From assembly GCF_000008665.1 (NCBI RefSeq), contig NC_000917.1:1020001-1052000 (forward strand): a stretch of 32,000 nt of DNA. Direction: 5' to 3'. A program made the position numbers and the translations under genes. The notes under the pieces are model-generated. The model was not told where the DNA came from. It was given only the letters and a program-made list of their open reading frames with translations, and did not search any database. The stretch comes from Archaeoglobus fulgidus DSM 4304. GTDB lineage: Archaea > Halobacteriota > Archaeoglobi > Archaeoglobales > Archaeoglobaceae. Below are positions 7,462 to 23,408 of the stretch, in pieces; the stretch's first letter is position 1; the number at the start of each line of letters is the position of its first letter.

Positions 7462-7481
7462 TTTATAAGCAGGTTTGCCGA

Positions 7482-7718: not shown

Positions 7719-8061
7719 ACTCCCTCCGCAGGTTCAGAATCTGGTTGCGCAGCTTCAGCAGCTTCAGCAGCAGCTGCAGGCAGTAATCACTCAGAGGGCT
7801 CAGGTAGAGGCGTTGCTGAGAGACACGGAGCAGGCACTGGAGGAGCTTCAGAAGGTCGATGATGAAACACCGGTCTACAAGGCTGTTGGAAACATTCTGG
7901 TTAAGGAGAAGAAGGAGGACGTGATTAAGGAGCTTACAGAGAAAAAGGAGACCTACGAGATAAGGATAAAGACTCTGCAAAGGCAGGAGGAAAAGCTCAG
8001 GGAGAGGTTCGCTGAGACACAGCAGAAGCTCCAGAACCTGCTCAGTCCTCAGGCAGGATAA
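7711..8061 (+). CDS. pfdB: prefoldin beta subunit
   Basis: 116 aa with two coiled-coil arms flanking a beta-hairpin core (PVYKAVGNILVKEKKEDV), the typical prefoldin beta size and layout. Confidence 0.9.
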   Translation: MGELPPQVQNLVAQLQQLQQQLQAVITQRAQVEALLRDTEQALEELQKVDDETPVYKAVGNILVKEKKEDVIKELTEKKETYEIRIKTLQRQEEKLRERFAETQQKLQNLLSPQAG

Positions 8062-8368
8062 CGCTGAGGATTTCCTCAAGCAATTTTTTATCGATTTCCC
8101 TGCTTATTCTCAGGAATTTTCCCTCGAAGGCAATGAATCCCCTCTCGAACCGCCATGCGGTCTTGAAGGGGTGCAGCTTGACCTTTGAAGCACCAAATTT
8201 CTCAAGACTGACGGGCTTAACATCTTTGTCGAGCCTTACGGTGAAGGAGAGGTCATCTCCCACAGCTACGACGTTCTCGTAGATTTTTCTCATCTCACTC
8301 TGCAATTCCCACGGCTTCCAGTCCCTCTCGTTGGCCTTTTCGTAGAGCTTCAGAATTGTTTGCCTCAT
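8042..8368 (-). CDS. hypothetical protein (108 aa), function unknown
   Basis: Clean ORF with normal composition. It is divergent from pus10 and shares an AT-rich promoter region (gttttaaag, 8387-8396). Its 3' end overlaps pfdB by 20 bp. I recognise no diagnostic motif. Confidence 0.55.
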   Translation of the reverse strand: MRQTILKLYEKANERDWKPWELQSEMRKIYENVVAVGDDLSFTVRLDKDVKPVSLEKFGASKVKLHPFKTAWRFERGFIAFEGKFLRISREIDKKLLEEILSVILPED

Positions 8369-8414
8369 GTAGCCACTGCCACAGCAGTTTTAAAGCCCTT
8401 TTCCAATTTTCTCT

Positions 8415-9488
8415 GTGAACCTCTGCAGGGAGTGCTATGGCATCATCGGCGAAGGTGTGGTTGCAGAGAAATGCGAGGCGTGCTGCAACGCCTTCGACAG
8501 AGTTGAGGAGTTTGCCGAGGAGATTGTGAAAAAGATGTCAGAGTACGAATTCGAGACATTCAACGTTGGGAGCAGGGTTTGGGGCAGTTTGAAAGCCCTG
8601 CAAGAATATCTGTCGCTGAAGGGGATTGAGTACGAGATAAAGCAGAGGTTCAACACAAAGCTTGCCAGAGCCATCGAAGAGAAAACTGGAAGTAAAAGAA
8701 CCCTTAATCCAGACATAACCGTTCTGTTCGACCTCGAAACCTTCACCTTTGAGCTTCAGATAAGGCCCGTTTTCATCTACGGAAGATACCTGAAGAGGGT
8801 CAGGAACATCTCGCAGACGAGGTGGCTGTGCGGGTATTGCAATGGAGAAGGCTGTGAAGTATGCAACTTCACCGGGAAGAAGTACGTTTCATCGGTTGAG
8901 GAGCTAATTGCCATGCCCGCTGTCAGGCTTTTCAAAGCGAGAGATGCAAAGCTCCACGGTGCTGGAAGGGAGGACGTTGATGCGAGAATGCTTGGAACTG
9001 GCAGACCCTTTGTGCTTGAGGTAATCGAGCCAAGAAAGAGGTTTGTTGACCTGAAGGAGCTTGAAGAGGCTATAAATTCCCAGAAGTGGGTTGCTGTTAG
9101 GGATCTTGAGTACACAGATGCTGAGAAGGTCAGAGAGGTGAAAACGGAGAGGCACAGAAAGACCTACAGGGCGAAGGTCGTTTTTGAGGAGAAGGTTGAG
9201 AGGGAAAGGCTAATTGAGGCCCTTGAAAGCCTTAAGGGAGAGATAAGGCAGAGAACTCCCATGAGAGTTTCGCACAGAAGGGCGGACAGGGTTAGGGTGA
9301 GAAGGCTTTACGATGCAAGGTTGATTCACCACACCGGCAGGGTTGCGGTGGTGGAGTTTGAGGCCGAGGCGGGGCTCTACATCAAGGAGCTTGTCAGCGG
9401 GGATAACGGAAGAACAAGGCCGAGTCTGGCAGAAAAAGTTGGAGTAAATGCGAGAGTTGACAGGTTGGATGTGATAGCTGTCAGCTGA
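8415..9488 (+). CDS. pus10: tRNA pseudouridine(54/55) synthase Pus10
   Basis: 357 aa with a GTG start. N-terminal Zn module (CRECYG...CEACC), a second CxxC pair (CGYCNGEGCEVC), and a catalytic-core motif with the conserved Asp (GREDVDARMLGTGRPFVLE). Confidence 0.85.
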   Translation: MNLCRECYGIIGEGVVAEKCEACCNAFDRVEEFAEEIVKKMSEYEFETFNVGSRVWGSLKALQEYLSLKGIEYEIKQRFNTKLARAIEEKTGSKRTLNPDITVLFDLETFTFELQIRPVFIYGRYLKRVRNISQTRWLCGYCNGEGCEVCNFTGKKYVSSVEELIAMPAVRLFKARDAKLHGAGREDVDARMLGTGRPFVLEVIEPRKRFVDLKELEEAINSQKWVAVRDLEYTDAEKVREVKTERHRKTYRAKVVFEEKVERERLIEALESLKGEIRQRTPMRVSHRRADRVRVRRLYDARLIHHTGRVAVVEFEAEAGLYIKELVSGDNGRTRPSLAEKVGVNARVDRLDVIAVS

Positions 9489-10572
9489 TTTCAATCAGCC
9501 TGTAGTTTTGCGTTCCCAGTTCAAGCTTTTCGGCATAGTTAAGCATCCCCTCAACGTCCGTCCAGTCCCAGAACTTCTTGTCTTTCAGCAATGCTCCGCT
9601 TAGATTCTCAGCCTGCCTGTACAAGTCCACGCTTGCCCTGTCTATTGCGAGAATATCCTTTGAGGCCATTATGCCCAGGTCAGGCACAACTGGCAGGTCG
9701 CTGTAGGGGTGGCAGTCGCAGTGGGGGGTGATGTCCATCAGGAAGTTCAGGTAGGCGAAGTTCTTCTGCACCTTAAAAACACCCTTCGTGCACTCCACTA
9801 TTCTCTCCGACACATCTCTGCCAAAAACCCAGAAGGTTTTAACAGCCCCATAATCACAGGCCTCCGAGCAGCCGAGGCACTTGACGCACTTCTCCCTGTT
9901 AATCTGGTAGTCCTCTATCGCATTGCTTGGACAGATTTTCACGCACTCATCGCACTTCGTGCACTTCTCTTCATCAATCTGCGGGTAGTCGGACATGTGG
10001 ATGTCGAATTTGGAGGGCTTTGCAACGCAGCCAACCCCCACGTTCTTTATGCTCCCCCCAACCCCAGCCTGCATGTGCAGCTTGAAGTGGGTGCAGCAGA
10101 TGACCGCATCGCATTCAGCAATGGCCTTAGCCACCTTCACCGAGTTAAGGTGTTTCCCCTCTACCGGCACCTCAACGTAGTCGAAGCCCAGCAATCCGTC
10201 GGCGATGATTATCGGGGCCTTCAGGGTTTGGTGGGTGTATCCGTTTTCTTCAGCAATGTTTATTCTCCCCACCGCAGTGCATCTTGGCCTCAGCATCCCC
10301 AGACCGGTAGTTTCCGTCACAAAAGGCCTTCCACCAGCCTCGATAACCTTCTCAACAACTGTCCTTATGAAGACGCTCCTCAGAGTTCTTGTTGTGCCCC
10401 TATCGCCAAAATGCGTTTTTACCGCTACAACATCCCCCTTTGAAACCACATCAAGAACACCGCTCTCATCTATCAGCTTTTCCAGCTTTCTAACAGCACT
10501 CAAATCGGGCTGATACCATTTAGCTGGATCTGTAACCTCCGCCCTTGTGCTTGTGTAAAAAACATCCTTCAT
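9481..10572 (-). CDS. COG2768/DUF362-type Fe-S protein with 2x[4Fe-4S] ferredoxin domain
   Basis: 363 aa. Family-typical N-terminus (VFYTSTR..., VAVKTHFGDRGTTRTLRSVFIRTVVEKVIEAGGRPFVTETT), HFKLH..GVGGSIKN, and two Cys clusters (CTKCDECVKICP; CVKCLGCSEAC). ATGA overlap with the upstream KaiC-like gene. Confidence 0.85.
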   Translation of the reverse strand: MKDVFYTSTRAEVTDPAKWYQPDLSAVRKLEKLIDESGVLDVVSKGDVVAVKTHFGDRGTTRTLRSVFIRTVVEKVIEAGGRPFVTETTGLGMLRPRCTAVGRINIAEENGYTHQTLKAPIIIADGLLGFDYVEVPVEGKHLNSVKVAKAIAECDAVICCTHFKLHMQAGVGGSIKNVGVGCVAKPSKFDIHMSDYPQIDEEKCTKCDECVKICPSNAIEDYQINREKCVKCLGCSEACDYGAVKTFWVFGRDVSERIVECTKGVFKVQKNFAYLNFLMDITPHCDCHPYSDLPVVPDLGIMASKDILAIDRASVDLYRQAENLSGALLKDKKFWDWTDVEGMLNYAEKLELGTQNYRLIEIS

Positions 10573-11156
10573 AAACTCTCTTTCAGCATCCTCTTAATTA
10601 TCTCTTTCGCCTCATTGGAATCAAAATCGCTTTTGTCAAGGGGGACCGAGGACTTTATAATTCTGACCTTTCCATCCTCTTTAGTTTCCACAATATTGGG
10701 AAAGAACATGGAAATTGAAACTTCCACACTCTTCTCGTGGGCATCCTTGACTAAGGTGAAAATGCTGTTTGATTTCTCCTTTTCAACTCTCACAAGTAAA
10801 GCCCTTAAGAAGTGGAGGATTCTCTGATATGTGTGGTAGATGAGCAACCCCGAGATTGAGTTCATTATCAGAAGGTAGCTGCCATCAAGACCGTCAAGCA
10901 CTTTGTTTATGGCCAGGCTCACCTCGTTGAGGTTCAGGGGGTTGGAAACGATTATGTCTCTGCTGTCTTCTGAGTTCTTCTTCCCCCACGTGTAGGTGTC
11001 GATAATCCACACATCTTCTCTTCCAATTCTTTTTCTGACAAAATATGCGCTGGAGAGAGTGGTAACCCAAACTACATTGTCGAATTCCTTCGAAACATCC
11101 TCGAGGATCTTGCACTTGCCCGTTCCAGGGGGGCCATTAATCAGTACGTGTGTCAT
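10569..11156 (-). CDS. mini KaiC/RecA-superfamily (DUF835-like) P-loop ATPase
   Basis: 195 aa. Walker A lies at the extreme N-terminus (LINGPPGTGK), and a Walker-B-like hydrophobic strand reads YLLIMNSISGL. The order of conserved blocks resembles archaeal KaiC-like/DUF835 signalling ATPases. A GAGGA SD lies upstream. Confidence 0.6.
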   Translation of the reverse strand: MTHVLINGPPGTGKCKILEDVSKEFDNVVWVTTLSSAYFVRKRIGREDVWIIDTYTWGKKNSEDSRDIIVSNPLNLNEVSLAINKVLDGLDGSYLLIMNSISGLLIYHTYQRILHFLRALLVRVEKEKSNSIFTLVKDAHEKSVEVSISMFFPNIVETKEDGKVRIIKSSVPLDKSDFDSNEAKEIIKRMLKESL

Positions 11157-11200
11157 CTAAATTCCTCTCTGCAAGGTGTTGGCTTAGGTGTTCAGATAGG

Positions 11201-11208
11201 TTTTAAAC
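11201..11208. promoter_or_regulatory. shared/bidirectional TATA candidate (TTTTAAAC) between KaiC-like operon and metallophosphoesterase gene
   Basis: The only AT-rich box in the 74-bp divergent intergenic region. Its centre is ~26 nt upstream of ATG 11231. Preceded by a direct repeat AGGTGTT (11174-11180, 11186-11192). Confidence 0.4.
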
Positions 11209-11230
11209 TTTTACGCTTTTATCGTTACCA

Positions 11231-11899
11231 ATGGAAGATGTTTTGCTTACGCCAGAGAGGGCGGCAATTGTGGGAAATACAGCTGTAATAGCCGACCTGC
11301 ATCTCGGATTTGAGAATGTGTTGCAGGAGAGAGGCTACGCTGTACCGAGAATGCAGGTGGAGGAAATAAAAGCTAGAGTTGCGAGCATTGTGGAGAAGTA
11401 CGGTATCGCCAAAATCGTGGTGGCGGGAGACTTAAAGCATGAGTTCAGCAAAAATTTACCGTACGAGTGGGAGGACGTCAGGGAGTTTATAGAATCCGTT
11501 AATGTGGAGCTTGAGGTTGTGAGAGGAAACCATGACAACTACCTCGCAGCAATTCTGGCTGAGTACGGAATAGAGCTTAAGGAGAGCGTAAGGGTTGGAG
11601 ATTATCTGGTCGTTCATGGCCATAAGGATTGCGAGGAGGAGAAGGTGATAATGGGGCATGAGCATCCGGCCGTGAAGGTGAGAGTGAGGGGAGCTTTGTA
11701 CACTTTCCCATGCTACCTCGTTGCGGATGGAGCAAAAATCGTCCTGCCCGCCTTCTCCCCCCTGATGAGCGGTAGCGATGTTCTGCAGGGAAACTTTCTG
11801 TCACCCATCCTTCAGAAGGCGAGGAAAATTGAGGTTTATGCGATTGAGGAGGAAGTTGTGTATCTAGGAAGTATCGAGGATTTACGAAAAATTATTTAG
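11231..11899 (+). CDS. COG1407-type (ICC/MPE-like) metallophosphoesterase
   Basis: 222 aa with calcineurin-like motifs in order: DLHLG, GDLKHEF, GNHD, HGH, GHEHP. Confidence 0.8.
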   Translation: MEDVLLTPERAAIVGNTAVIADLHLGFENVLQERGYAVPRMQVEEIKARVASIVEKYGIAKIVVAGDLKHEFSKNLPYEWEDVREFIESVNVELEVVRGNHDNYLAAILAEYGIELKESVRVGDYLVVHGHKDCEEEKVIMGHEHPAVKVRVRGALYTFPCYLVADGAKIVLPAFSPLMSGSDVLQGNFLSPILQKARKIEVYAIEEEVVYLGSIEDLRKII

Positions 11900-11931
11900 A
11901 TTTTTAATTTTAAGTAGTTATTACGAAAAAG

Positions 11932-11939
11932 TATTAAGT
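11932..11939 (+). promoter_or_regulatory. TATA candidate (TATTAAGT) for the Panacea-like gene
   Basis: Centre ~26 nt upstream of ATG 11961 and no SD, which fits a leaderless transcript. Confidence 0.4.
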
Positions 11940-11960
11940 AACTTTGTAAACACCCCTCTT

Positions 11961-12470
11961 ATGGAATCAAGATTGCGAAGCTTGGCAGGATTTGTAGAAG
12001 CCCTCAAGGAAGCTTTGAGTTTCAAATTTAATGTTAACAGATTTGACCATAGATTGAAACTACAAAAACTAGTTTACATTTATAAGGCATTGGGCGGAAA
12101 TCTGCTAGATTATGAGTTTAATCTATACCTGAGAGGTCCATATTCTCCAGAGCTAGCGGATGATTACTACCACCTATCTAATTCTGGAATGATTGGTGAG
12201 GTAGGGGGTCAACAGAAAGAGATTTTTCTCCAAGATAAAATTTTTAGAGCATTAGTGAATATAGCAAGAGATAAAGACGGAACTTGGCTCGAAATTGCTG
12301 CGACATTATTAGAACTGAAGAAGGTTGCTGAGAGCCTAGCTAAGCTGGGAATAACGAAAGAAGACTTCGAAATGGAACTTGTGAATTTAACATATAAAAG
12401 AAAGCCCTTTGCATCTAAAAACTATATCAAAACGGTATTAGAGGAACTTAAAAAATACGGTGCTATTTAA
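11961..12470 (+). CDS. Panacea/DUF4065 (SocA/GepA-like) domain protein, antitoxin-type
   Basis: 169 aa. The core RLKLQKLVYIYKAL...LYLRGPYSPELADDYY matches the DUF4065 pattern (KLQKLLY...GP..P.ly). Lies in a low-GC stretch (hand count 19-24 G+C per 60 nt). Confidence 0.55.
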   Translation: MESRLRSLAGFVEALKEALSFKFNVNRFDHRLKLQKLVYIYKALGGNLLDYEFNLYLRGPYSPELADDYYHLSNSGMIGEVGGQQKEIFLQDKIFRALVNIARDKDGTWLEIAATLLELKKVAESLAKLGITKEDFEMELVNLTYKRKPFASKNYIKTVLEELKKYGAI

Positions 12471-12970
12471 TTCCACGCAATGTGTCAACTACGCTAACAT
12501 CTCGACCAGAAATGAAATTTATATATGCGTTTCCGTAATCTAACATCCTTCTATCATTTGCCCATATATATTTTGCATTAGGGTCCACTGACACCTGGGA
12601 GAGAAACCATATATCGTAAATGTCAAGCCCCCACTGATTTTCGTCACTCCACTCCTGATTCAGGATTTTGTCACCTCTGCCGAATATCCTCTTAAGTTCT
12701 TTTTTATCAACATCATTAATTGAATCGGCTCTTATAATTCTGGACTGAGTTTCTCTTAGAAAATCAAGCAATTTTTCGATTATTTTATCTTCTCTCCACT
12801 CTTTAACTAAACACTGCCCGAAAGTTTCGCCAATTGACGACTCTAGTAGATAGACTTCGAACTCTCGGCAATTCCCTTCTAAAATAGCTTTTTAAATCAG
12901 TGTTGTTCTCTATTTGCCCTTCAATGTAGTCTAATGCTATGGAAGTCTCTATGTAAATCCTTTTACTCAT
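12463..12970 (-). pseudogene. PIN-like domain protein (putative nuclease/toxin), disrupted by a 1-nt insertion
   Basis: ATG 12970 opens MSKRIYIETSIALDYIEGQIENNTDLK. The frame then breaks in an A5 run (plus-strand T5, 12889-12893). Skipping one base joins it to AILEGNCREFEVYLLESSIGE... and on to the track ORF 12463..12771, giving 168 aa in total. Acidic residues are spaced as in PIN domains (E8; LLESSIGE; DIYDIW; ANDRRM near the C-terminus). The family call is tentative. Confidence 0.45.
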
Positions 12971-12994
12971 CGGAATTATACTTCATGCGAGTGG

Positions 12995-13002
12995 TTTAAT
13001 TG
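12995..13002 (-). promoter_or_regulatory. TATA candidate (CAATTAAA on minus strand) for the PIN-like gene
   Basis: Centre ~27 nt upstream of ATG 12970 (leaderless geometry). Confidence 0.35.
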
Positions 13003-13071
13003 TTTTCCGTGTTAGCTTGGAGTTAGGCCGTTATTATTTCGGATAAGTATAAAATAACAATTCCTCATTAA

Positions 13072-14484
13072 TTACTCGGGAACATCAAGCCCTATGGTCC
13101 TTCTGTATCGCATTCCGGGAAAGCTAATTTTTTCAAGTGCTGAATACGCTTTGCTCCTTGCCTCCTCAATGCTTTGTCCCATTCCAACGACCGTCAGAAC
13201 TCTTCCGCCGGTTGTGACGTATCCATTCGTTTTAGCGATGCCGTTGGCGTAGATTATCGCCTCCTTCATCGCCTCCTCGATTCCTGTTATAGGCTGGCTG
13301 GTGTAGTGGTCTGCAGGATAGCCGGGCTTCAGCCCTTCTCTGCCCTTCAGAGCTCCGCTGACCGCGCAAACAGCAACGCAGTAATCGCTGCTGAACCTCA
13401 TCTCCACCTCATCCAGCCTACCCTCCACCACAGCCATCGATATCTCAGCCATATCGCTCTTAAGCCTCGGTAGCTTTGCCTCCGCTCCGGGGTCGCAGTC
13501 CCTGACGTTTATCTCAAGAACCTTAGGGATTAGTTCTCCGTTTTCCTCAACAAGCATTATGACAGGATAAAGAACGCCTTTGAACTCCTTGTCAAAGTTC
13601 TCTATTATCGGCTCCACAACCATCTCCATGATTCTCTGCTCTACCTCCTCCGTTACCGCTGGATGTGGGCTCACCGCACCCATACCTCCTGTGTTGGGGT
13701 TGATGAGCTTTCCCTCCCTGTAGAGTTGCTCTATTTGGGCTTTGGTGTAGAATTTTTTTGTGAGGCCGATGTAGAAGTCCCTCAAGCCCTCAATGTCATC
13801 GCTGTCGAAAGCCCTCTTGTAGTCCCTTGCATGGCCGAACGGCTTGACGGTTTTGCCGTCCGTCATGGCGGTGAAGGCAACCTCAATTCCCCTCAGCCTC
13901 TCCTCAACCACAATCCTGTTTCCAGCCTCTCCGAACTTCTTCTGAACCATTATCTCGTCCACCGCCCTTAATGCCTCCTCTACGGAGTCGCAGACGTAAA
14001 CACCCTTCCCCGCAGCAAGGCCATCTGCCTTCACCACTATCCCGTTGTTGAACTTCTCCCTTATGTACTCCTTCGCCTCTTCTGGATTGTCGAAGTTCGC
14101 GTACTCAGGAATGGGAACTCCAATTCTCTTTAAGAAATCCTTCGCCCAGCACTTGCTTGCTTCAAGAATCGTGGCCTCCTTTTTCGGCCCTACGGCAGGT
14201 ATTCCCTCCTCCTCAAGTCTGTCAACCAATCCGAGGCTCAGCGGCTCTTCCGGTCCGATGTAAGCGAGGTCAACCTCGCATTTCTTTGCGAACCGCACTA
14301 TCTCGTCTATTGCCCTTATAGATGGAATTTTCTTTCCATCAAGCTCGGCAATCTTACACTTTTCGAAAAATTCGCTACCCCCGTTTCCGGGAGCTATATA
14401 AATTTCTTTAACCTGCTCACTCCTTGAGAAAGCGTGAGCAATTGCGTTACCCCTCCCTCCTGCATCGACCACCAGAACCTTCAT
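13072..14484 (-). CDS. purD: phosphoribosylamine--glycine ligase
   Basis: 470 aa ATP-grasp enzyme. N-terminus MKVLVVDAGGRGNAIAHA, VVKADGLAAGKGV, NTGGMGA, C-terminal GGRVL. Carries an apparent ~30-aa insertion before NTGGMG (see findings). Confidence 0.95.
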   Translation of the reverse strand: MKVLVVDAGGRGNAIAHAFSRSEQVKEIYIAPGNGGSEFFEKCKIAELDGKKIPSIRAIDEIVRFAKKCEVDLAYIGPEEPLSLGLVDRLEEEGIPAVGPKKEATILEASKCWAKDFLKRIGVPIPEYANFDNPEEAKEYIREKFNNGIVVKADGLAAGKGVYVCDSVEEALRAVDEIMVQKKFGEAGNRIVVEERLRGIEVAFTAMTDGKTVKPFGHARDYKRAFDSDDIEGLRDFYIGLTKKFYTKAQIEQLYREGKLINPNTGGMGAVSPHPAVTEEVEQRIMEMVVEPIIENFDKEFKGVLYPVIMLVEENGELIPKVLEINVRDCDPGAEAKLPRLKSDMAEISMAVVEGRLDEVEMRFSSDYCVAVCAVSGALKGREGLKPGYPADHYTSQPITGIEEAMKEAIIYANGIAKTNGYVTTGGRVLTVVGMGQSIEEARSKAYSALEKISFPGMRYRRTIGLDVPE

Positions 14485-14591
14485 ACCGTTTTTTATCTCA
14501 TCGATTATTTTCCGTTTTCGGTCAGCAGGGGCGGATATATAATTAATCCTCGTTTTTAATTACAAATTCTACCTGTGTAAAAATAACAAAG

Positions 14592-14599
14592 CTTAAATA
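14592..14599 (+). promoter_or_regulatory. atp operon promoter (BRE/TATA aaaGCTTAAATA)
   Basis: Consensus-like archaeal BRE+TATA. The predicted TSS is near 14622, giving a ~35-nt leader with a GGTGG SD 6 nt before ATG 14657. Confidence 0.55.
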
Positions 14600-14656
14600 C
14601 GATTTGTAAGGCTTTCGAATGTCTTTAAAGTTTAGAGTTTGATCAGGGTGGTTACC

Positions 14657-14986
14657 ATGGATAGGACAGAAATTCTTGAAAAAATTAAGCAGGCAGAGAT
14701 TAAGGTTGAAGAGGCTATCAGGGCTGCAGAGGAGGAACGAAAAAACAAAATTCTTGAGGCTAAGATGAAAGCGAGAGAAATTATTGAGAGTGCCGAAGCT
14801 GAGGCGGTTAAAGTTAAGGAAGACATTCTCAATTCTGCAAGGCAACAGATAGAAGCCGAGAAGGAGGAAATCAGAAAGAGGGAAACAAAGAACATCGAGG
14901 ATTACGCAAAGAAGGGCAAGGATAACATCATGAAGGCCGTGGAGATGCTGTATAATGAGTTCGTAGGGATGATGGAACATGCTTAA
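14657..14986 (+). CDS. atpH: A-type ATP synthase subunit H
   Basis: Track ORF 14639..14986. An E/K/A-rich coiled-coil protein of ~109 aa in first position of the operon. Start set to ATG 14657 (MDRTEILEKIKQAE...) behind the SD. Confidence 0.8.
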   Translation: MDRTEILEKIKQAEIKVEEAIRAAEEERKNKILEAKMKAREIIESAEAEAVKVKEDILNSARQQIEAEKEEIRKRETKNIEDYAKKGKDNIMKAVEMLYNEFVGMMEHA

Positions 14987-17009
14987 GCCGGAACGAATGG
15001 TTAGGGTTTCTGTAGTGGGTCCCAGGGAGAAACTGGGCGAAACTGCAGACCTTCTCCACAGACTCAACCTCGTCCACATAGAGGAGCCTGAAGAATCGGA
15101 ATACTTCAGAATCGGCGAGCCGCATCCGGATGCATCAGTTGTTTCAAGAGCCCTTGTCCAGATGAGGAGCTTCATCTCCCACCTGAAGCTCGATCCATCG
15201 AGGATAGTGCCCAGAAGAAAGTTCAGAGAGTCCGAGATTGAAGCCCAGCTTAAGGAGAAGCTCGACGAGTACCAGCAATTGATTGGAGAGCGAATTGAGT
15301 ATCTGAGAAGCGTTGATGAAAAGATTGCATCCTTGCAGGAGCAGCTCAACCAGATAGAGCCTCTCAAGAGGCTCGGAATACCCGCAAGACTGCTTAAGGG
15401 CTACAAGACGCTCAGAGTTTTCGTCGGGTTTGTAAAGGAGAACCCGACGGAGAAGTTTGCCCAGGTAACGAGCGATTTTGAAGTTTTCGCCACCGAATAC
15501 GAGAAAGAGCTCGTTGTAGCGGTTTTCGTTAAAGCCGAGTACGGGGACGAGTTCCTGAGAATCTTGCAGGAGTGCGGTTACAGGGAGATTCAGGTTCCCG
15601 ACGTTGAGGACTTTGAGGCAAAAATTTCGGAGATAGAGAAGGAAATCGAATCGCTGAAGTCAAGAAAGGAGCAGGTAGAGAAGGAAATAGAAGAGGTAAA
15701 GGTAAAGGAGGCCGAAACTCTGCTTGCAATTGAAGAATACCTCAGCTCGCAGATGGACAAGTACGAGCTGCCTTTGAGAACTTTGGTTTCGAAGTACTCA
15801 TTCGTCCTCGTGGGCTATCTGCCTGCAAAGGCTTTGAACGAGTTCAAGGCCAAGATGGATGCAAACGGCGTTGCGGTTGAGGTGCTTGATGAAGAGGGTG
15901 AACCTCCAACCAAGCTCAGCAACCCTGCTGGTGTGAGAAACTTTGAGCTCCTCACAACAACCTTCGGAATTCCGAAGTACAAGGAGATTGACCCAACTGT
16001 GTTCATAGCGATCTTCTTCCCGATCTTCTTCGGTATGATGCTGGGAGATATCGGTTACGGTTTGCTCGTCACGGTCATTTCCCTGTACCTCAAGAGGGTG
16101 TTTAAGACTGAGGGCTGGCAGAGGATGCTGAACATCGGTGTGTACGCTGGAGTGATGTCAATAATCTTCGGCTTCATCTACGGAGAGTGCTTCGGCCCCT
16201 TCATAGTGCCTGGAGAGTACGAGCCATACCAGATCCACTTCATTGGCTCGCAGCTTGAGCACCTCTACGAGTTCCACCACGGTCATCCGATTTTCGACAG
16301 GGTTGAGGAGATGGGTGTCAAGATTCTGCTGTTCGCAACGATTGTGATCGGTATCGCGAAGATTCTCTTTGGATTCGCTCTCGGTTTCTACAACGTCTAT
16401 GTCGAGCATGGCCTTAAGGATGCGATTCTCGAGAAGCTCTCGTGGATCATAGGTGTTCTTGGCCTTGCAATGATCATCTTCGGCTTCGCGTACAACGTGG
16501 GAGTGTTCTACCAGCTCGGAATGGGTCCGAATCCGGGCGATGTGCCTCCGCTTCCACTGCCTGGACTTATGGAAGGCTGGCAGGCAGGACTGAACGTTTA
16601 CTACTTGGCAGCACTTCCATTGCTCGTCGTCTGGTTCATACTGTTCGTCATGGGCGAAGTGCCGAAAATGGGTGCTATGGGAGTCATACTTGCAGTCGAG
16701 CTGCTAACGTGGTTCGGCCAGATCATGAGCTACGCGAGACTTCTAGCCATTGGACTGTCTTCAGTCTACATAGCCTTCGTCATCAACTTCATCGGAATGA
16801 AGCTCATTGATCCAGTGGGTATAAGTATACCGATAGTTGGCGCAATAGTCCTGCTAATCGGACACGTGGGCAACTTGATTCTCGGCATTCTCGATCCAGG
16901 TTTGCAGTCATTGCGTTTGCACTACGTAGAGTTCTTTACGAAGTTCTTTGAGGGTGGCGGAAGGCTCTACGAGCCTTTCGGCAGGATAAAGAGGTTTATT
17001 GAGGAGTGA
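14979..17009 (+). CDS. atpI: A-type ATP synthase subunit I (stator a-subunit)
   Basis: 676 aa. Soluble N-terminal half, then a polytopic C-terminal half containing the conserved Arg region (MSYARLLAIGLSS) and LRLHYVEFF. Its start overlaps the atpH stop (ATGCTTAA). Confidence 0.93.
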   Translation: MLKPERMVRVSVVGPREKLGETADLLHRLNLVHIEEPEESEYFRIGEPHPDASVVSRALVQMRSFISHLKLDPSRIVPRRKFRESEIEAQLKEKLDEYQQLIGERIEYLRSVDEKIASLQEQLNQIEPLKRLGIPARLLKGYKTLRVFVGFVKENPTEKFAQVTSDFEVFATEYEKELVVAVFVKAEYGDEFLRILQECGYREIQVPDVEDFEAKISEIEKEIESLKSRKEQVEKEIEEVKVKEAETLLAIEEYLSSQMDKYELPLRTLVSKYSFVLVGYLPAKALNEFKAKMDANGVAVEVLDEEGEPPTKLSNPAGVRNFELLTTTFGIPKYKEIDPTVFIAIFFPIFFGMMLGDIGYGLLVTVISLYLKRVFKTEGWQRMLNIGVYAGVMSIIFGFIYGECFGPFIVPGEYEPYQIHFIGSQLEHLYEFHHGHPIFDRVEEMGVKILLFATIVIGIAKILFGFALGFYNVYVEHGLKDAILEKLSWIIGVLGLAMIIFGFAYNVGVFYQLGMGPNPGDVPPLPLPGLMEGWQAGLNVYYLAALPLLVVWFILFVMGEVPKMGAMGVILAVELLTWFGQIMSYARLLAIGLSSVYIAFVINFIGMKLIDPVGISIPIVGAIVLLIGHVGNLILGILDPGLQSLRLHYVEFFTKFFEGGGRLYEPFGRIKRFIEE

Positions 17010-17020
17010 GGTGTGTTTGA

Positions 17021-17264
17021 GGAGGTGAGATGAATGGTGGAAGATGCATTGGCTAAGGGTTTGATTGCAGTTGGTGCTGGACTGGCAGTTGGACTGGCCG
17101 GTATTGGTGCAGGACTTGGTGAGAGCGGTATCGGTGCAGCTGCCGTAGGAGCTACAGCCGAGGACAGGGGCTTCTTCGGTCTCGGTATTCTGTTCACAGT
17201 TATACCGGAGACCATAGTCATCTTCGGACTGGTCATAGCGTTCATACTGATGTTCGCGTTCTAA
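17021..17264. repeat. direct repeat copy 1 (SD + atpK + stop), 244 bp
   Basis: Identical at every position to 17441-17684 by line-by-line comparison. Flanking bases differ on both sides. Confidence 0.95.
17034..17264 (+). CDS. atpK: A-type ATP synthase subunit K (c/proteolipid), copy 1
   Basis: 76 aa Gly/Ala-rich two-helix hairpin with the ion-binding Glu in TM2 (VIPETIVIFG). GGAGGTGA SD 5 nt upstream. Confidence 0.9.
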   Translation: MVEDALAKGLIAVGAGLAVGLAGIGAGLGESGIGAAAVGATAEDRGFFGLGILFTVIPETIVIFGLVIAFILMFAF

Positions 17265-17265
17265 C

Positions 17266-17448
17266 ATGCCGGGCGAGGAGCTGGTCAGGAGATTCCTGGA
17301 AAGGAGGGTGCTGACGGAAAAAAACATAGAGAGGTTCGTGAAGTATTACTGGTTGGTGTCGACCGCGAGGATGGTTCTCGGAGTAACCATCCTCATTTTA
17401 ATATTAATAGGCGGGCTTAAGTTTAGCCAGCTTATTCCCTGGAGGTGA
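17266..17448 (+). CDS. small single-pass membrane protein (60 aa), unassigned, inside atp operon
   Basis: The ATG lies 1 nt after the atpK-1 stop, and the TGA lies inside the atpK-2 SD. Basic N-terminus (RRFLERR) plus one hydrophobic span (MVLGVTILILILIGGL). Codon usage resembles its neighbours. I recognise no homology. Confidence 0.45.
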   Translation: MPGEELVRRFLERRVLTEKNIERFVKYYWLVSTARMVLGVTILILILIGGLKFSQLIPWR

Positions 17449-17684
17449 GATGAATGGTGGAAGATGCATTGGCTAAGGGTTTGATTGCAGTTGGTGCTGG
17501 ACTGGCAGTTGGACTGGCCGGTATTGGTGCAGGACTTGGTGAGAGCGGTATCGGTGCAGCTGCCGTAGGAGCTACAGCCGAGGACAGGGGCTTCTTCGGT
17601 CTCGGTATTCTGTTCACAGTTATACCGGAGACCATAGTCATCTTCGGACTGGTCATAGCGTTCATACTGATGTTCGCGTTCTAA
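17441..17684. repeat. direct repeat copy 2 (SD + atpK + stop), 244 bp
   Basis: Identical to 17021-17264, with a 420-bp period. Confidence 0.95.
17454..17684 (+). CDS. atpK: A-type ATP synthase subunit K (c/proteolipid), copy 2
   Basis: Protein and DNA are identical to copy 1. Confidence 0.9.
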   Translation: MVEDALAKGLIAVGAGLAVGLAGIGAGLGESGIGAAAVGATAEDRGFFGLGILFTVIPETIVIFGLVIAFILMFAF

Positions 17685-17694
17685 GGTGAAAGAG

Positions 17695-18261
17695 ATGCCA
17701 CTGGATAAAGTACTGCAGGAGATCCAGCAGAAAGGTGAAGAGGAGGTCAGGAGAATCAGGGAGGAGACGGAGAAGGAAGTTGAGAAGATACTGGCCGAGG
17801 CCAAGGCTGAGGCCGAGGAGATTCTGAAGAAGGCCAGAGAGGAGGCAGAGAAGGAGGCGGAAGCCATCAGAAGGCAGGAAATTTCCAGCGTCAAACTGGA
17901 GATGAAAAGGGAACTTCTGAACGTGCAGAAGGAGATCCTTGAGGAGGTTTTCAACCTTCTCAGGCAGAAGGTTAGAGACATGGATGAAGAGACGAGAAAG
18001 AAGATACTCAAAAACCTGCTTGAAAAGAACGCTTCACCAGGAATGGTTGTTTACTCAAGGAAAGAGGATGAGGACATAGTAAAAGAGCTGATAAAGGAGC
18101 TCAAACTCGATGTCACCTACGGCGGCAACATAGACTGTATAGGAGGAGTCATACTTGAAGACCCCGCCGGGGACATCAGACTGAACCTGACGTTCGACGA
18201 ACTTGTAAGCCAGGTTTACGAACAGAAGCTGAGCGAAGTGTCAAAATTGCTTTTCAAGTAA
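17695..18261 (+). CDS. atpE: A-type ATP synthase subunit E
   Basis: Track ORF 17686..18261. E/K-rich N-terminal coiled coil plus a globular C-terminus, in the expected operon position. Start set to ATG 17695, 5 nt behind the AGGTGA SD. Confidence 0.85.
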   Translation: MPLDKVLQEIQQKGEEEVRRIREETEKEVEKILAEAKAEAEEILKKAREEAEKEAEAIRRQEISSVKLEMKRELLNVQKEILEEVFNLLRQKVRDMDEETRKKILKNLLEKNASPGMVVYSRKEDEDIVKELIKELKLDVTYGGNIDCIGGVILEDPAGDIRLNLTFDELVSQVYEQKLSEVSKLLFK

Positions 18262-18277
18262 GTAAGAGGTGATAACA

Positions 18278-19297
18278 ATGATCTACAAGGGAAATAGAGC
18301 CGCCTGGGCTTACATCGTTGCAAGAACGAAGGTTATGAAGAGCAGACTGCTGAAGCCAGAGGACTTCAGGAAACTGCTGAACATGGAGTTTGACGAGATT
18401 GTGAGGTATATAGGTGAGACGGAGTATAAAAAGGAAATCGACGAGCTCGGCTACAAGTTCACGGGGCCAAGACTGCTCGACCACGCCCTCTACGCAAACC
18501 TCGCGAGAACCTACAGAAAGCTCATTGAGGTCTCCTTTGGTGCCTCAAAGTTCCTGATAATGAAGTATCTTGAGAAGTGGGATGTCTGGAACATAATAAA
18601 CATCATCAGGGGCAAAATGGCAAACGTTCAGCCCGAAGTGGTTGATGACATTCTGGTCCCTGCTGGTGAGAGGGACATGGACTTCTGGAAGACGTTGCTT
18701 GTCAAGGATATCGAAGAAATCGTCAAGTCCTTTGAGGGGACACCCTACTACGAGCCCCTTTCCAAGATAGGCAGCGAAGACATGAGCAAAATCGAGGACG
18801 GGCTTTACAAGGTTTACTACAGGGAGTTACTAAAGCTAAATCCTTCAGACTTTGCAATGAAGCTCTTCCTCGACTTCATCAAGATGGAAATAGACATAAG
18901 GAACGTCAAGACGCTGCTGAGGCTGAAGGCGGAGGATGCGACGCCCGACGAAATAATGGAGTGCACGATTCCCGGTGGTTACGAACTTACCGAAGAAGAA
19001 CTCAGGAAGCTTGCGGCCATGCCGATTGATGAAATGATAAAGGCTCTCGAGGGCTACTGGTTCTGGAATGACGTTCAGATTGAAGGGAAGGAGGTCGCGG
19101 CAGTTGAGATCGAGTTCGACAAGGTCTGGATAAAGACAATCTCCAAGAGGGCCAGCAACTATCCGCTCAGCATTCTGCCGGTTCTGCAGTACATTGTGCT
19201 GAAAAAGGTTGAAGTGGACAACCTGAGAGTTCTTGGTTGGGGCAAATACTACGGCTTGCCGAGCGAGGAGATTGAGAGGCAGATGGTGATATTATGA
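18278..19297 (+). CDS. atpC: A-type ATP synthase subunit C (d-like)
   Basis: Track ORF 18269..19297. ~339 aa all-helical protein at the operon position after E. The GTG at 18269 is part of the GAGGTGA SD, so ATG 18278 was chosen. Confidence 0.85.
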   Translation: MIYKGNRAAWAYIVARTKVMKSRLLKPEDFRKLLNMEFDEIVRYIGETEYKKEIDELGYKFTGPRLLDHALYANLARTYRKLIEVSFGASKFLIMKYLEKWDVWNIINIIRGKMANVQPEVVDDILVPAGERDMDFWKTLLVKDIEEIVKSFEGTPYYEPLSKIGSEDMSKIEDGLYKVYYRELLKLNPSDFAMKLFLDFIKMEIDIRNVKTLLRLKAEDATPDEIMECTIPGGYELTEEELRKLAAMPIDEMIKALEGYWFWNDVQIEGKEVAAVEIEFDKVWIKTISKRASNYPLSILPVLQYIVLKKVEVDNLRVLGWGKYYGLPSEEIERQMVIL

Positions 19298-19599
19298 AAA
19301 AGTTGGCGGTAGTGGGCGATCCGGACTTCACGATTGGCTTCATGCTTGCAGGAATCTCGGACATATACGAGGTCACGAGCGACGAGGAAATCGTTAAGGC
19401 GGTTGAGGATGTTTTAAAGAGAGATGATGTTGGTGTTGTGATTATTAAGCAGGAGTACCTGAAAAAGCTCCCTCCGGTTTTGAGGAGGGAAATTGATGAG
19501 AAGGTTGAACCCACCTTTGTTTCTGTAGGAGGAACCGGAGGTGTGGAGGAGATTAGGGAGAAGATAAGAAAGGCGATAGGTGTTGACCTATGGAAGTGA
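19294..19599 (+). CDS. atpF: A-type ATP synthase subunit F
   Basis: 101 aa ([19 protein letters not shown]...) with the typical V/A-ATPase F fold signature. ATGA overlap with atpC. Confidence 0.88.
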
Positions 19600-21335
19600 A
19601 AGAAGCTGGATACGTGGGAGAAATTTATAGGATTTCTGGACCCCTCGTCGTTGCGGAGGGATTGAAGGCCAGAATGTACGACCTCTGCAAGGTAGGTGAA
19701 GAGGGGCTGATGGGAGAGGTTGTAGGTTTAGTAGGGCAGAAGGTTCTCATTCAGGTTTACGAGGATACAGAGGGTGTAAAGCCGGGTGACAAAGTAGAGA
19801 ACACCGGAATGCCGCTCAGCGTTGAGCTTGGGCCTGGATTGATAAGAAACATCTACGATGGTGTGCAGAGGCCATTGCCGGTGCTAAAGGAGGTCAGCGG
19901 AGATTTCATCGGGAGGGGCATTGAAGCTCCGGGCTTGGACAGAAAGGCAAAGTGGGAGTTTAAGCCGCTGGTGAAGAAGGGAGAAAAAGTAAAACCGGGA
20001 GAAATAATCGGAACTGTTCAGGAGACTGAGGTTGTAGAGCAGAAGATTCTCGTTCCGCCGAACGTCAAGGAGGGAGTAATCGCTGAGATTTACGAGGGCA
20101 GCTTTACGGTTGAGGACACCATTGCGGTTCTTGAGGATGGCACGGAGCTTAAGCTCTACCACAAGTGGCCAGTCAGAATTCCGAGGCCGTACGTAGAGAA
20201 ACTTCCACCCGTTGTGCCGCTCATAACTGGTCAGAGAATTCTGGACACCTTCTTCCCGGTTGCAAAGGGAGGTACCGCTGCAATTCCGGGCCCATTCGGA
20301 AGCGGTAAAACTGTGACCCAGCACCAGCTGGCAAAGTGGAGTGATGCTCAGATTGTCGTTTACATCGGATGCGGTGAGAGAGGCAACGAGATGACAGAGG
20401 TTCTTGAGGAGTTCCCGGAGCTTGAAGACCCGAGAACAGGAAAGCCGTTGATGGAGAGAACGGTTCTTGTTGCCAACACCTCCAACATGCCTGTTGCGGC
20501 GAGAGAGGCTTCGGTTTACACCGGAATCACCATTGCGGAGTACTTCAGAGACATGGGCTACGATGTAGCCATACAGGCTGACTCAACCAGCAGATGGGCA
20601 GAGGCAATGAGAGAAATCTCAGGAAGACTTGAGGAGATGCCCGGTGAAGAGGGCTACCCCGCTTACCTCGCATCAAGGCTTGCAGAGTTCTACGAGAGAG
20701 CTGGCAGAGTTAAGACCCTCGCAGGGAACATAGGGAGTGTCACGGTTGTCGGAGCAGTTTCACCGCCCGGCGGTGACTTCAGTGAGCCAGTAACTCAGAA
20801 CACGCTCAGAATTGTGAAGGTGTTCTGGGCCCTCGATGCGAAGCTCGCTGCCAGAAGGCACTTCCCCGCCATAAACTGGCTGCAGAGCTACAGCCTCTAC
20901 GTTGACACCCTGAAGGACTGGTTTGCTGAGAACGTCAGCGAGGAGTGGAACGAGCTGAGAAGATGGGCAATGGAGGTTCTGCAGGAGGAGGCTAACCTGC
21001 AGGAGATTGTGCAGCTTGTTGGTAGCGACGCACTGCCAGAATCCCAGAGAGTCCTTCTGGAGGTTGCGAGAATCATCAGAGAGGTTTACCTCATCCAGTA
21101 CGCCTACCACCCCGTCGATACATACTGCAGCGTGCAGAAGCAGTACGACATGCTGAAGGCCATAAAGCAGATCAACGACTGGTTCTATCAGGCTCTCGAA
21201 GCAGGAAAGACCATCGATGAAATTGCGGGAGTCGAGGGTCTCGAAGAGTTTGCCAGAGCCAAGTTCGAGGAGGACTACAAGCCCGCCATGGAGGCTGCGC
21301 TGGAGAAGATTAGAAAGAATCTGCTCGGAGAGTGA
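19590..21335 (+). CDS. atpA: A-type ATP synthase catalytic subunit A
   Basis: 581 aa. Walker A GPFGSGKT, Walker B region [13 protein letters not shown], and the A/V-type non-homologous insert region. No intein. Confidence 0.97.
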
Positions 21336-22753
21336 TGAAGATGAAGGAGTATAAGACCATAACCCAGGTTGCGGGTCCCCTTGTTTTTGTTGAGAAAACC
21401 GAGCCGGTTGCCTACGGAGAGCTCGTCACCATAACGCTTCCCGACGGCTCAACAAGGAGAGGTCAGGTTCTCGACACGTCCAAAGATGTCGTCGTTGTTC
21501 AGGTTTTCGAGGGTACGAGAGGAGTTGACACCTCAAGCACCGTCAGGTTCACCGGTGACATCGTCAAGCTCAACTGCTCCCAGGACATGCTCGGAAGAAT
21601 TCTGAGCGGTTCCGGTGAGCCGATTGATGGTGGGCCAAAGATCGTTCCAGAGGAGAGGAGACCAATTGTCGGTGCGGCCATCAACCCCTACGCCAGGCAG
21701 TATCCGAGAGAGTTCATCCAGACCGGTATTTCAGCAATTGACGGAATGAACACCCTCGTCAGAGGTCAGAAGCTCCCGATTTTCAGCGGTTCAGGTTTGC
21801 CGCACAACGACATCGCTCTGCAGATTGCGAGGCAGGCAAAAGTTAGGGGCGAGGGTGAGGAGTTCGCTGTCATATTCGCGGCTATGGGCATAACTTACGA
21901 AGAGGCGTACCAGTTCATGAAGGAGTTCGAGAGGACTGGGGCACTGGAGAGGGCTGTTGTTTTCCTCAACCTTGCCAACGACCCGGCTATCGAGAGATTG
22001 CTGACTCCCAGAATGGCACTCACCGCTGCAGAGTTCCTCGCCTACGAGTACGACCTGCATATTCTGGTTATTCTCACAGACATGACCAACTACTGCGAAG
22101 CTCTTAGAGAGATTTCGGCAGCAAGAGAAGAGGTTCCCGGAAGAAGAGGATATCCGGGTTACATGTACACTGACCTCGCAACTATCTACGAGAGGGCTGG
22201 CCGTATCAGGGGCAGGAAGGGGACGATTACGCAGATGCCAATCCTCACAATGCCGGGCGATGATATCACCCACCCAATTCCCGACCTCACCGGGTATATC
22301 ACCGAGGGACAGATAGTTTTGAGCAGAGAGTTGCACGCCAAGGGTATTTATCCACCAATCAACGTCCTTCCGTCGCTCAGCAGGTTGATGAAGGAAGGTA
22401 TCGGCGAGGGATACACAAGAGAGGACCACCCGCAGTGGAACGACCAGATGTATGCGGCCTATGCTGAGGGTGTTGACCTCAGAGGTCTCGTCGCCATTGT
22501 TGGTGAGGAGGCTCTGTCAGAGAGGGACAGGCTCTTCCTGAAGTTTGCCGACGAGTTCGAGAGGAGGTTTGTCCAGCAGGGAAGATACGAGGACAGAGAT
22601 ATTGAGTACACTCTCGACCTCGGATGGGAGCTGCTCGCAATGCTTCCTGAGAGAGAGCTCACGAAGGTTGAGAGAAAGTTCATAGAGAAATATCACCCCA
22701 AGTACAGGAAAAAAGAAGCTAAGCCCGAGGAGGCCACAGAGGAGGCCTCCTGA
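21335..22753 (+). CDS. atpB: A-type ATP synthase subunit B
   Basis: Track ORF 21332..22753 (GTG). ATG 21335 overlaps the atpA stop (TGATG). Typical B-subunit motifs are present ([25 protein letters not shown]). Confidence 0.96.
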
Positions 22754-22778: not shown

Positions 22779-23408
22779 ATGGCAGAGGTCCAACCGACAC
22801 GAATGGAGCTCATAAAGCTCAGAAGAAGGATAAAGATGGCCACCCGTGGCCATGCACTGCTTAAGATGAAGAGAGATGGCCTCATCATGGAGTTCAGGCA
22901 GCTTCTGGAGGAGGCAAAGGAAGTCATTGGTGGGATGGTTCAGAAGTACGAGAAAGCTCAGAGCAAGCTTGCGTTAGCGATAGCAGTTGACGGTATCGTA
23001 GCTGTCAGGTCAATCGCCCTCTCCTGCTGCCAGATTCCGCCAGAGTTCAGCATGAAGAGGAAGAACATAATGGGAGTCGTTGTGCCAGTCATCAAGAGAG
23101 AGCCAATAAGAAAGAAGCCCACGGAGAGGGGATACGGAATCCTGAGCACATCCACGAGAGTCGATGAAGCGGTCGAGGCTTACGAGGAGCTTGTTGATGC
23201 TGTACTTGAGGTTGCGGAGATTGAAACAACCCTCAGAAAGCTCATTGAGGAAATTGAGAGGACGAAGAGAAGAGTTAACGCTCTCGAATACCGCGTTATT
23301 CCAACGATGGAGGAGCTTGCAAAGTTCATCTCGTTCAAGCTGGAGGAGATGGACAGAGAGAACATTATAAGGTTGAAGAAGCTCAAGATGAAGAAGGCAA
23401 AGTCTTAA
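22779..23408 (+). CDS. atpD: A-type ATP synthase subunit D (central stalk)
   Basis: 209 aa with N- and C-terminal long helices (PTRMELIKLRRRIKMATRGHALLKMKRD... RVNALEYRVIP). GAGGTGA SD upstream. Confidence 0.93.
   Translation: MAEVQPTRMELIKLRRRIKMATRGHALLKMKRDGLIMEFRQLLEEAKEVIGGMVQKYEKAQSKLALAIAVDGIVAVRSIALSCCQIPPEFSMKRKNIMGVVVPVIKREPIRKKPTERGYGILSTSTRVDEAVEAYEELVDAVLEVAEIETTLRKLIEEIERTKRRVNALEYRVIPTMEELAKFISFKLEEMDRENIIRLKKLKMKKAKS

Follow-up and report, generated by a model that had tools for sequence, protein, structure and literature searches.

Two identical copies of atpK, the gene for the proteolipid rotor subunit K (c) of the A1AO ATP synthase, flank a small gene, orfX, within a 32,000-nucleotide (nt) stretch of the Archaeoglobus fulgidus DSM 4304 chromosome (NC_000917.1, positions 1,020,001 to 1,052,000; hereafter the window). 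Taken as a whole, this atpK–orfX–atpK layout (K-X-K) is best explained as an ancient, stably inherited module whose copies are homogenized by gene conversion, a reading to which we give a probability of approximately 0.8; our confidence in the concerted-evolution account is high. Positions 17021-17264 (copy 1, K1) and 17441-17684 (copy 2, K2) of the window are identical at 244 of 244 positions, as found by reading the sequence and by a repeat search, with a start-to-start distance of 420 nt. The bases just outside the repeats are unlike on both sides (a at 17020 versus t at 17440 on the 5' side, c at 17265 versus g at 17685 on the 3' side). Each unit is composed of a Shine-Dalgarno sequence (GGAGGTGA; 17021-17028 and 17441-17448) and a 231-nt coding sequence (CDS; 17034-17264 and 17454-17684) that ends in TAA and encodes a product of 76 amino acids. 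Apart from the product length, these features had been described in a first-pass annotation made from the sequence alone, and re-reading bore them out. The pair is the sole direct or inverted repeat of at least 35 nt across the 32-kb window, and a perfect repeat of 244 nt cannot have arisen by chance.

The same annotation had called the 176 nt between the repeats (17265-17440) a unique spacer. They do occur only once in the window, but they are not a plain spacer, as they hold a conserved gene: a 60-codon open reading frame (ORF), orfX (AF_1161; 17266-17448), fills nearly the whole interval, starting 1 nt past the atpK-1 stop (TAAcATG) and ending with a TGA stop that lies within the Shine-Dalgarno sequence of copy 2. 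In exact-sequence look-ups the proteolipid corresponded to A. fulgidus DSM 4304 entries named atpK-1 and atpK-2 (2,178,400-bp genome record). The identical sequence is also recorded under a multispecies Archaeoglobus accession, and a second A. fulgidus strain carries it on a 2.3-Mb contig. The duplicate itself is already known, having been part of the A. fulgidus annotation since the 1997 genome. What is added here beyond annotation, relative to the searchable literature, is its clade-wide concerted evolution and AF_1161 as a predicted small membrane protein linked to the ATP synthase. Searches of that literature for AF1160, AF1161, AF1162, atpK-1, atpK-2 or an Archaeoglobus proteolipid returned nothing relevant, subscription-journal proteolipid reviews lying outside its scope.

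Distribution and concerted evolution of the atpK pair

Relatives were gathered by exact-protein look-ups and by a metagenome scan with the orfX family; labels of the form L0xx denote the compared contigs or loci, which are mostly metagenome-derived. The exact A. fulgidus AtpK protein is encoded in 10 places, eight of which show atpK, a 60-amino-acid ORF and atpK in succession, and look-ups with more distant AtpK proteins (78-89% identity) revealed the K-X-K layout in four further lineages. One Archaeoglobaceae metagenome-assembled genome (MAG) with K-X-K was among the matches listed from a genome scan with atpK. K-X-K with an orthologous middle gene and matching junction types is present in 11 looked-up lineages, and the metagenome scan, in which 43 loci carried the orfX family, yielded the layout in approximately 27 further contigs. 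In all, approximately 26 distinct, diverged Archaeoglobaceae lineages carry the layout; A. fulgidus and A. neptunius are the only named isolates among them, and the remainder are metagenome-derived. In a neighbor-joining tree of concatenated E, C and F proteins (655 columns), the K-X-K lineages are monophyletic with 200 of 200 bootstrap replicates, and single-atpK operons of the Archaeoglobales type are paraphyletic and lie outside this clade. Amino acid identity over the same three proteins goes down to 52% inside the K-X-K clade. Relatives of the Ferroglobus and Geoglobus type have one atpK only.

Within a genome, K1 and K2 differ at 0-8 nt, compared with 8-71 nt for atpK between lineages. 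Of the 32 columns of atpK that vary across six Archaeoglobus lineages, 30 are at third codon positions; the other two are a synonymous first position and a site in the stop codon. The two copies within each genome agree at 31 of the 32. The two copies differ at 0-2 nt in the 11 looked-up lineages, always within the last five bases, as in L031 and L014 with one or two differences at the extreme 3' end. We also compared K1 and K2 in 18 complete metagenome K-X-K loci. Perfect repeats of 245-266 nt, which start at or 1-3 nt before the Shine-Dalgarno sequence and end at or near the stop, were found in 15 of them; L072, L073 and L074 have one, two and seven interior synonymous differences, respectively, each with one more at the stop. 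Every interior difference seen between K1 and K2 is synonymous. Compared with each other, the metagenome K-X-K lineages differ at 18-71 positions of atpK, and synonymous divergence (dS) of the gene is 0.14-0.5 among Archaeoglobus lineages and exceeds 1 for deeper pairs. The untranslated bases between the Shine-Dalgarno sequence and the ATG likewise vary across lineages and match between the copies in each genome. In all 11 measured lineages, identity starts 12-15 nt before the ATG and extends 0-7 nt beyond the stop.

Paralogues in one genome are closer to each other than orthologues are across genomes, in the sense used in a published screen for concerted evolution (PMC6053082), and shared I-K-X-K-E synteny with an orthologous X places the duplication before species divergence. 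Recurrence in at least five species, as required in that screen, is exceeded by the approximately 26 lineages found here, although only two of these are named isolates. The first-pass annotation had offered three explanations for the identity of the copies, namely a very recent duplication, ongoing gene conversion or an assembly artefact, and it is gene conversion that is favored by copies that agree within genomes and diverge between genomes. The annotation had further proposed that relatives with two diverged copies would mark an old, ordinary paralogue pair. The pair has indeed turned out to be old, but it is not ordinary, its copies being identical within and different between genomes.

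We propose that a single duplication of the rotor gene, at the root of one Archaeoglobaceae clade and around orfX, was followed by recurrent intrachromosomal gene conversion that has wiped out nearly all K1/K2 differences, such that both copies evolve as one gene. The conversion tract would be confined to the homologous unit, whose limits are the Shine-Dalgarno site and the stop codon; this confinement would explain both the sharp ends of the repeats and the rare differences at their last bases. The copies resemble each other too closely for such tracts to be mapped, and the signs of them are indirect only, consisting of the 3'-edge differences in L031 and L014 and the few interior synonymous differences in L072-L074. 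One old duplication followed by continual homogenization is the simplest reading of the comparative data.

Alternative explanations for the identity of the copies

Several points weigh against this account. We infer conversion from the pattern of identity, no partial conversion tract having been caught. Most lineages are represented by short-read metagenome assemblies, in which a count of zero differences may hide a few single-nucleotide polymorphisms, because two near-identical copies can end up with one consensus in de Bruijn assembly; N gaps interrupt copy 2 at two loci (L014, 3866-3966; L041, 3033-3041). The tree that supports the K-X-K clade is a simple neighbor-joining tree of three proteins only. 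Cycles of unequal crossing-over would yield the same pattern and are not separable here from non-reciprocal conversion. With regard to the roles considered below for the second copy and for orfX, relatives of the Ferroglobus and Geoglobus type manage with one atpK, so that a second copy is no general requirement; orfX is without detectable homology to a known subunit or assembly factor; and the searchable literature holds no expression or proteomic evidence for it. The identity of the copies is not forced by the assemblers, in that the assemblies of L072-L074 resolve a few differences and the copies in the finished isolate genome are perfectly identical. Copies as diverged as the orthologues would never have collapsed in assembly.

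The alternative that survives best, although we consider it unlikely, is that the copies are homogenized by repeated unequal crossing-over (2→3→2 or 2→1→2 copies) instead of gene conversion, and that populations are mixed in copy number. As is established for homologous recombination, direct repeats of 244 nt at a spacing of 420 nt can serve as substrates for exchanges of this kind, and four assemblies (L027, L033, L045 and L048) contain exactly one unit, with the order I-K-E and no middle ORF. Both flanks of L033 are 100% identical to the window over 5.5 kb, the flanks of L045 are 100% identical to those of the two-copy contigs L043 and L044, and L027 matches L031, and L048 matches L046, at 99-99.9% identity. 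These one-copy contigs fit homologous pop-out and de Bruijn loop-skipping alike; assembler collapse explains them equally well, and we regard it as more likely. Pop-out of one unit in part of a population, as envisaged in the first-pass annotation, would be the less likely reading. Unequal crossing-over is further disfavored by the lack of any three-copy contig in approximately 45 assemblies, though short reads could not reveal one, and by the fate of orfX, which a lineage falling to one copy loses and cannot regain by crossing-over.

A second alternative dispenses with recombination and lets extreme selection at the sequence level, on codon use or mRNA structure, fix both copies at one optimum. 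The codon usage of atpK is distinct, and its synonymous divergence is 5-10 times below that of atpI, atpE and atpC. We nonetheless judge this explanation very improbable: synonymous bases and the bases between the Shine-Dalgarno sequence and the ATG do change across lineages (8-71 differences), each in both copies, and the same neutral-looking change would need to be fixed twice, independently, in every lineage. Because neutral-looking changes accumulate, yet always in both copies, selection without recombination is in effect excluded.

A very recent, A. fulgidus-specific duplication, in which the copies had no time to diverge, would match the 244/244 identity and sharp ends within the A. fulgidus genome, and is scarcely credible in the light of the orthologous, diverged middle gene shared by approximately 26 lineages of one 200/200 clade, of orthologous atpK dS values from 0.14 to >1 between lineages, and of lineage-specific substitutions that always appear in both copies. 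An assembly artefact, in which one atpK was written twice, is equally hard to credit. The one-copy assemblies from identical or almost identical strains, with flanks 100% identical (L033 versus the window; L045 versus L043 and L044), and the N gaps in copy 2 of some assemblies point towards it. However, purifying selection acts on the unique 176-nt insert, a conserved gene that can be placed only between two atpK copies; the layout recurs in the finished DSM 4304 record, on the 2.3-Mb contig of the second strain, in A. neptunius and across dozens of assemblies made independently; and the error expected of short reads is collapse to one copy, not expansion to two. With a middle gene that is both orthologous and diverged, and with shared junctions, recent duplication, parallel duplications and assembly artefact are all effectively excluded, and the two other options of the first-pass annotation fall with them. 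Gene conversion acting on an old pair is the explanation we retain.

Short-read assemblies break, gap or collapse at the atpK repeat (L014, L041, L027, L033, L045 and L048). Public MAG annotations and gene-content tables are therefore expected often to under-count atpK and omit orfX.

The ATP synthase operon and orfX

A Pfam search identified a complete A-type ATP synthase operon with the order H-I-K-X-K-E-C-F-A-B-D (Table 1); an Rfam search of the window gave no matches. An A/T run in the intergenic region 5' of atpH (14535-14547) is the likely, predicted promoter of the operon. The atpK product matches PF00137 (ATP-synt_C) with 58.5 bits against a cutoff of 24, residues 13-72 aligning with positions 1-60 of the 60-position profile. 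It also matches the NCBIfam V-type subunit K models at 6e-16, yet falls under their equivalog cutoffs. Both copies and every aligned relative encode a single helical hairpin with a carboxylate in helix 2 (P-E-T motif, FTVIPETIVIFGLV), and the gene lies between those for subunits I and E, the position that marks proteolipid K/c. The identification of the repeat in the first-pass annotation as a separate, unfused duplicate of atpK within an A1AO operon is in agreement with Pfam and with the public names.

Table 1. Coordinates of the A-type ATP synthase operon and of signals within it, in window positions
Feature	Position	Strand	Description
atpH-like, first operon gene	14657..14986	+	109 amino acids as called in identical public contigs; weak ATP-synt_B-like Pfam match
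atpI, stator subunit I/a	14979..17009	+	676 amino acids; PF01496 at 5e-27
Repeat copy 1, atpK-1	17021..17264	+	GGAGGTGA, 5-nt gap, CDS 17034-17264, TAA; PF00137 at 7.6e-16
orfX (AF_1161)	17266..17448	+	60 amino acids; exact match O29105
A/T-only run ATTTTAATATTAATA in orfX	17395..17409	+	Possible internal archaeal TATA box, lead only
Repeat copy 2, atpK-2	17441..17684	+	Shine-Dalgarno sequence overlaps last orfX codons and stop; CDS 17454-17684, TAA
atpE	17695..18261	+	188 amino acids as called; ORF open from GTG 17686; PF01991 at 2.7e-47
atpC	18278..19297	+	339 amino acids; PF01992 at 1.1e-78
atpF	19294..19599	+	PF01990
atpA	19590..21335	+	PF00006, PF16886, PF22919
atpB	21332..22753	+	PF00006, PF22919
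atpD, final operon gene	22779..23408	+	PF01813; no orfX copy downstream

The orfX product corresponds exactly to 'Uncharacterized protein AF_1161' (O29105). One database source names AF_1161 'ABC-type lipoprotein release transport system permease subunit', a name that no profile search backs. The ratio of nonsynonymous to synonymous divergence (dN/dS) of orfX is 0.03-0.29 across 11 lineages, and this purifying selection, together with operon linkage, shows that orfX is a real gene and not a plain spacer. Its homologues have in common an invariant core, (E/D)KN.ER..KY.W..S..R, after which comes a hydrophobic helix. An AlphaFold2 model places helices at residues 2-15 and 18-56, with a predicted local distance difference test score (pLDDT) of 76, and the hydropathy profile is concordant; the product is accordingly predicted to consist of an N-terminal charged helix and one transmembrane helix. 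The family comprised 11 proteins in a word-index search and three cluster representatives in an exhaustive profile search of 1.84 billion, and both searches placed its members in Archaeoglobales only. No match was obtained in Pfam at E≤0.01 or near any cutoff in NCBIfam; the best match among PDB profiles, at E=0.79, was a de novo designed protein; and a hidden Markov model (HMM) of the family showed no profile similarity to the proteins of its own operon. The same HMM detects exactly one orfX in the window.

Some other origins for orfX were considered and set aside. Its N-terminus (GEELVRRFLE..TEKNIERFV) resembles that of atpE, with a 29-nt stretch matched at 76%, at an offset of 462 nt and not 420 nt. 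By shuffling, this likeness is significant only in the genus Archaeoglobus (p 0.001-0.02) and not in deeper lineages, and the family HMM scores atpE at E=0.35. The idea that the 176-nt spacer is the relic of a tandem duplication of K and the 5' part of atpE was therefore rejected, the likeness being taken as a chance one between charged helices. Descent from a fragment of subunit I or K was likewise rejected for lack of profile similarity, and a match of one orfX homologue to the NCBIfam subunit I model (E=0.068) was treated as noise.

Homologues of orfX lie inside an A-type ATP synthase operon at 43 of 43 metagenome loci and at all look-up loci, where they occupy three positions. The first is between two atpK copies (approximately 27 metagenome loci and the look-ups); the second is directly after atpD, at the operon end, in operons with a single K of the Ferroglobus/Geoglobus type (11 loci and L050-L056); the third is between I and a single K (L086-L088). 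In two independent samples, L086 (Ga0071330_1063217, 6856-9177) and L087 (Ga0065719_102082, 2-1027), orfX continues the reading frame of subunit I as a C-terminal fusion; the product has 773 amino acids and an 18-residue linker (TKFLATQGSSVPKVMATS), and a single atpK follows. The L086 operon (6534-15167) is a mosaic: I, X and K are nearest to the K-X-K clade, whereas H, E, C, F and D are nearest to the Geoglobus/Ferroglobus type, and subunit I shows 57-64% identity to the K-X-K clade versus 45% to the other type. Such a pattern suggests that the membrane-sector genes may have been exchanged as a block, having travelled together.

Operon linkage, fusion to I and co-inheritance with I and K all suggest that orfX works with these two subunits. 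It would probably encode an accessory component or an assembly helper of the AO sector, acting beside subunits I and K, a function that we propose with moderate to low confidence. Small accessory or assembly proteins of rotary ATPases include bacterial AtpI/UncI, yeast Vma21 and V-ATPase subunits e and f. Like these, orfX is predicted to encode a very small membrane protein and is operon-linked, lying beside K or I or fused to I. Unlike them, it is confined to Archaeoglobales, and it lacks sequence similarity to them; no sequence or profile homology of orfX to AtpI/UncI, Vma21 or subunits e and f was found in Pfam, NCBIfam or PDB. It is tempting to speculate, though we hold this fuller version to be tentative and on balance doubtful, that AF_1161 would be a new, Archaeoglobales-specific AO component or assembly factor contacting subunit I and the K ring, that K-X-K would act as a self-stabilizing dosage device, in which conversion would hold the rotor genes alike while the needed gene between them would make it costly to lose a copy by recombination, and that in Archaeoglobus proper atpK-2 and the genes after it may have a promoter of their own within orfX.

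The reading frame of orfX starts 0-6 nt past the atpK-1 stop in most lineages, without a Shine-Dalgarno sequence of its own; in L042 its start overlaps the atpK-1 stop (TGATGATG), and in L046 the gap is 28 nt. By contrast atpE, which follows the identical end of atpK-2, has its own GGTGA. This arrangement suggests that orfX may be translated by coupling to atpK-1. A 20-nt block within orfX (ACCATCCTCATTTTAATATT, 17386-17405) is invariant in the six Archaeoglobus lineages, synonymous sites included, while the rest of the gene varies. It overlaps the A/T-only run listed in Table 1. The window holds 17 A/T-only runs of at least 11 nt, 11 of them intergenic and promoter-like, five in clear CDS and one uncertain (27352-27362), and the run in orfX is the longest of those within CDS. 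Centered approximately 52 nt upstream of the atpK-2 ATG, it could suit a putative archaeal TATA box whose transcript would begin immediately ahead of the Shine-Dalgarno sequence. Of 25 K-X-K lineages, no more than 10 carry a similar run, and an internal promoter would be a lineage-specific feature at most and is offered as a lead only.

Proposed dosage role, parallels and significance of the pair

In the same Archaeoglobus genome pairs, atpK has a dS of 0.14-0.45, compared with 0.85 to >3 for atpI, atpE and atpC. Its GC content at third codon positions (GC3) is 0.49, versus 0.55-0.70 in the other five operon genes measured, and in this comparison orfX and atpF are intermediate. Codon selection, biased conversion or exchange between lineages could each be the cause of the low dS; nucleotide-level constraint of this kind is typical of heavy translational demand. 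Rotary ATPases contain subunit K in many copies per enzyme and the other subunits in one to three. A second atpK would raise the supply of K without altering the ring, and the pair would be kept since many K subunits are needed per enzyme; identical copies would be favored since both products join the same ring. Recombination between the repeats would delete orfX too, and orfX may, speculatively, thereby help to retain the pair. We infer this dosage role of the second atpK, a plausible reading that the first-pass annotation had also put forward, with moderate to low confidence.

In archaeal A1AO ATPases, fused proteolipids with multiple hairpins are known, including duplicated, triplicated and 13-hairpin forms. 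Their hairpins diverge and some lose the ion-binding carboxylate, so that ring architecture and the ion/ATP ratio change. The atpK pair resembles these fused proteolipids in that the number of rotor copies or hairpins varies within the same operon slot. It differs in that the A. fulgidus genes are separate and identical, such that only supply can change. Giant fused proteolipid genes were also observed in unrelated loci of our set (L016 and L019; also L017, L018, L020 and L022). The L016 gene (2843-6196; Thermoplasmata MAG JAWOAU010000041.1) encodes 1117 amino acids with an N-terminal signal-like/extracellular domain and approximately 12-13 c-subunit hairpins, and that of L019 (3317-4696) encodes 459 amino acids with the same N-terminal domain and four hairpins. 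Several hairpins of these giant proteins are without the PET carboxylate.

Long-lasting concerted evolution has been catalogued for tufA/tufB, mtrA-1/mtrA-2, psbA/psbD and archaeal histones, and the published prokaryote-wide screen lists seven archaeal and 19 bacterial genes (PMC6053082, PMC4632066). Neither atpK nor any gene of Archaeoglobales is among its seven archaeal genes, and atpK is not among the 19 bacterial ones. As in the catalogued cases, the atpK paralogues of one genome resemble each other more than orthologues from different genomes do, the duplication is older than the speciation events, many species are involved and the products are subunits of a complex. The nearest archaeal parallel is mtrA-1/mtrA-2, which lies inside the mtr operon of Methanococcales and Methanomicrobiales (PMC6053082, PMC4632066); there, as here, both copies are within one operon. 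In contrast to the catalogued cases, the atpK unit is tiny (approximately 245-266 nt), comprises the whole gene with its ribosome-binding site, is usually base-perfect and brackets another conserved gene.

Among ATP synthases the nearest parallel is the F1FO atp operon of Acetobacterium woodii, in which atpE2 and atpE3 encode identical c subunits (PMC7911925), likewise as two unfused genes in one operon for the same single-hairpin rotor subunit. A third gene, the fused and V-type-like c1, makes the A. woodii ring a mixed one, and the close relative C. aceticum is without atpE3 (PMC7911925). The A. woodii enzyme differs in being bacterial and F-type, and the accessible portion of that report presents the pair neither as clade-wide nor with an intervening gene or concerted evolution.

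Within an archaeal energy-conversion operon, the atpK pair of A. fulgidus and its relatives represents a clean and very compact case of clade-wide concerted evolution that the published catalogue does not list. As a way to obtain more rotor subunit, it would leave the architecture of the ring intact, unlike the diverging hairpins of fused proteolipids. AF_1161, in turn, moves from 'uncharacterized protein' to candidate lineage-specific partner of the A1AO membrane sector, because three independent kinds of genomic association point the same way: it is linked to the operon in three positions, it occurs fused in frame to subunit I, and in a mosaic operon it shares its ancestry with I and K.

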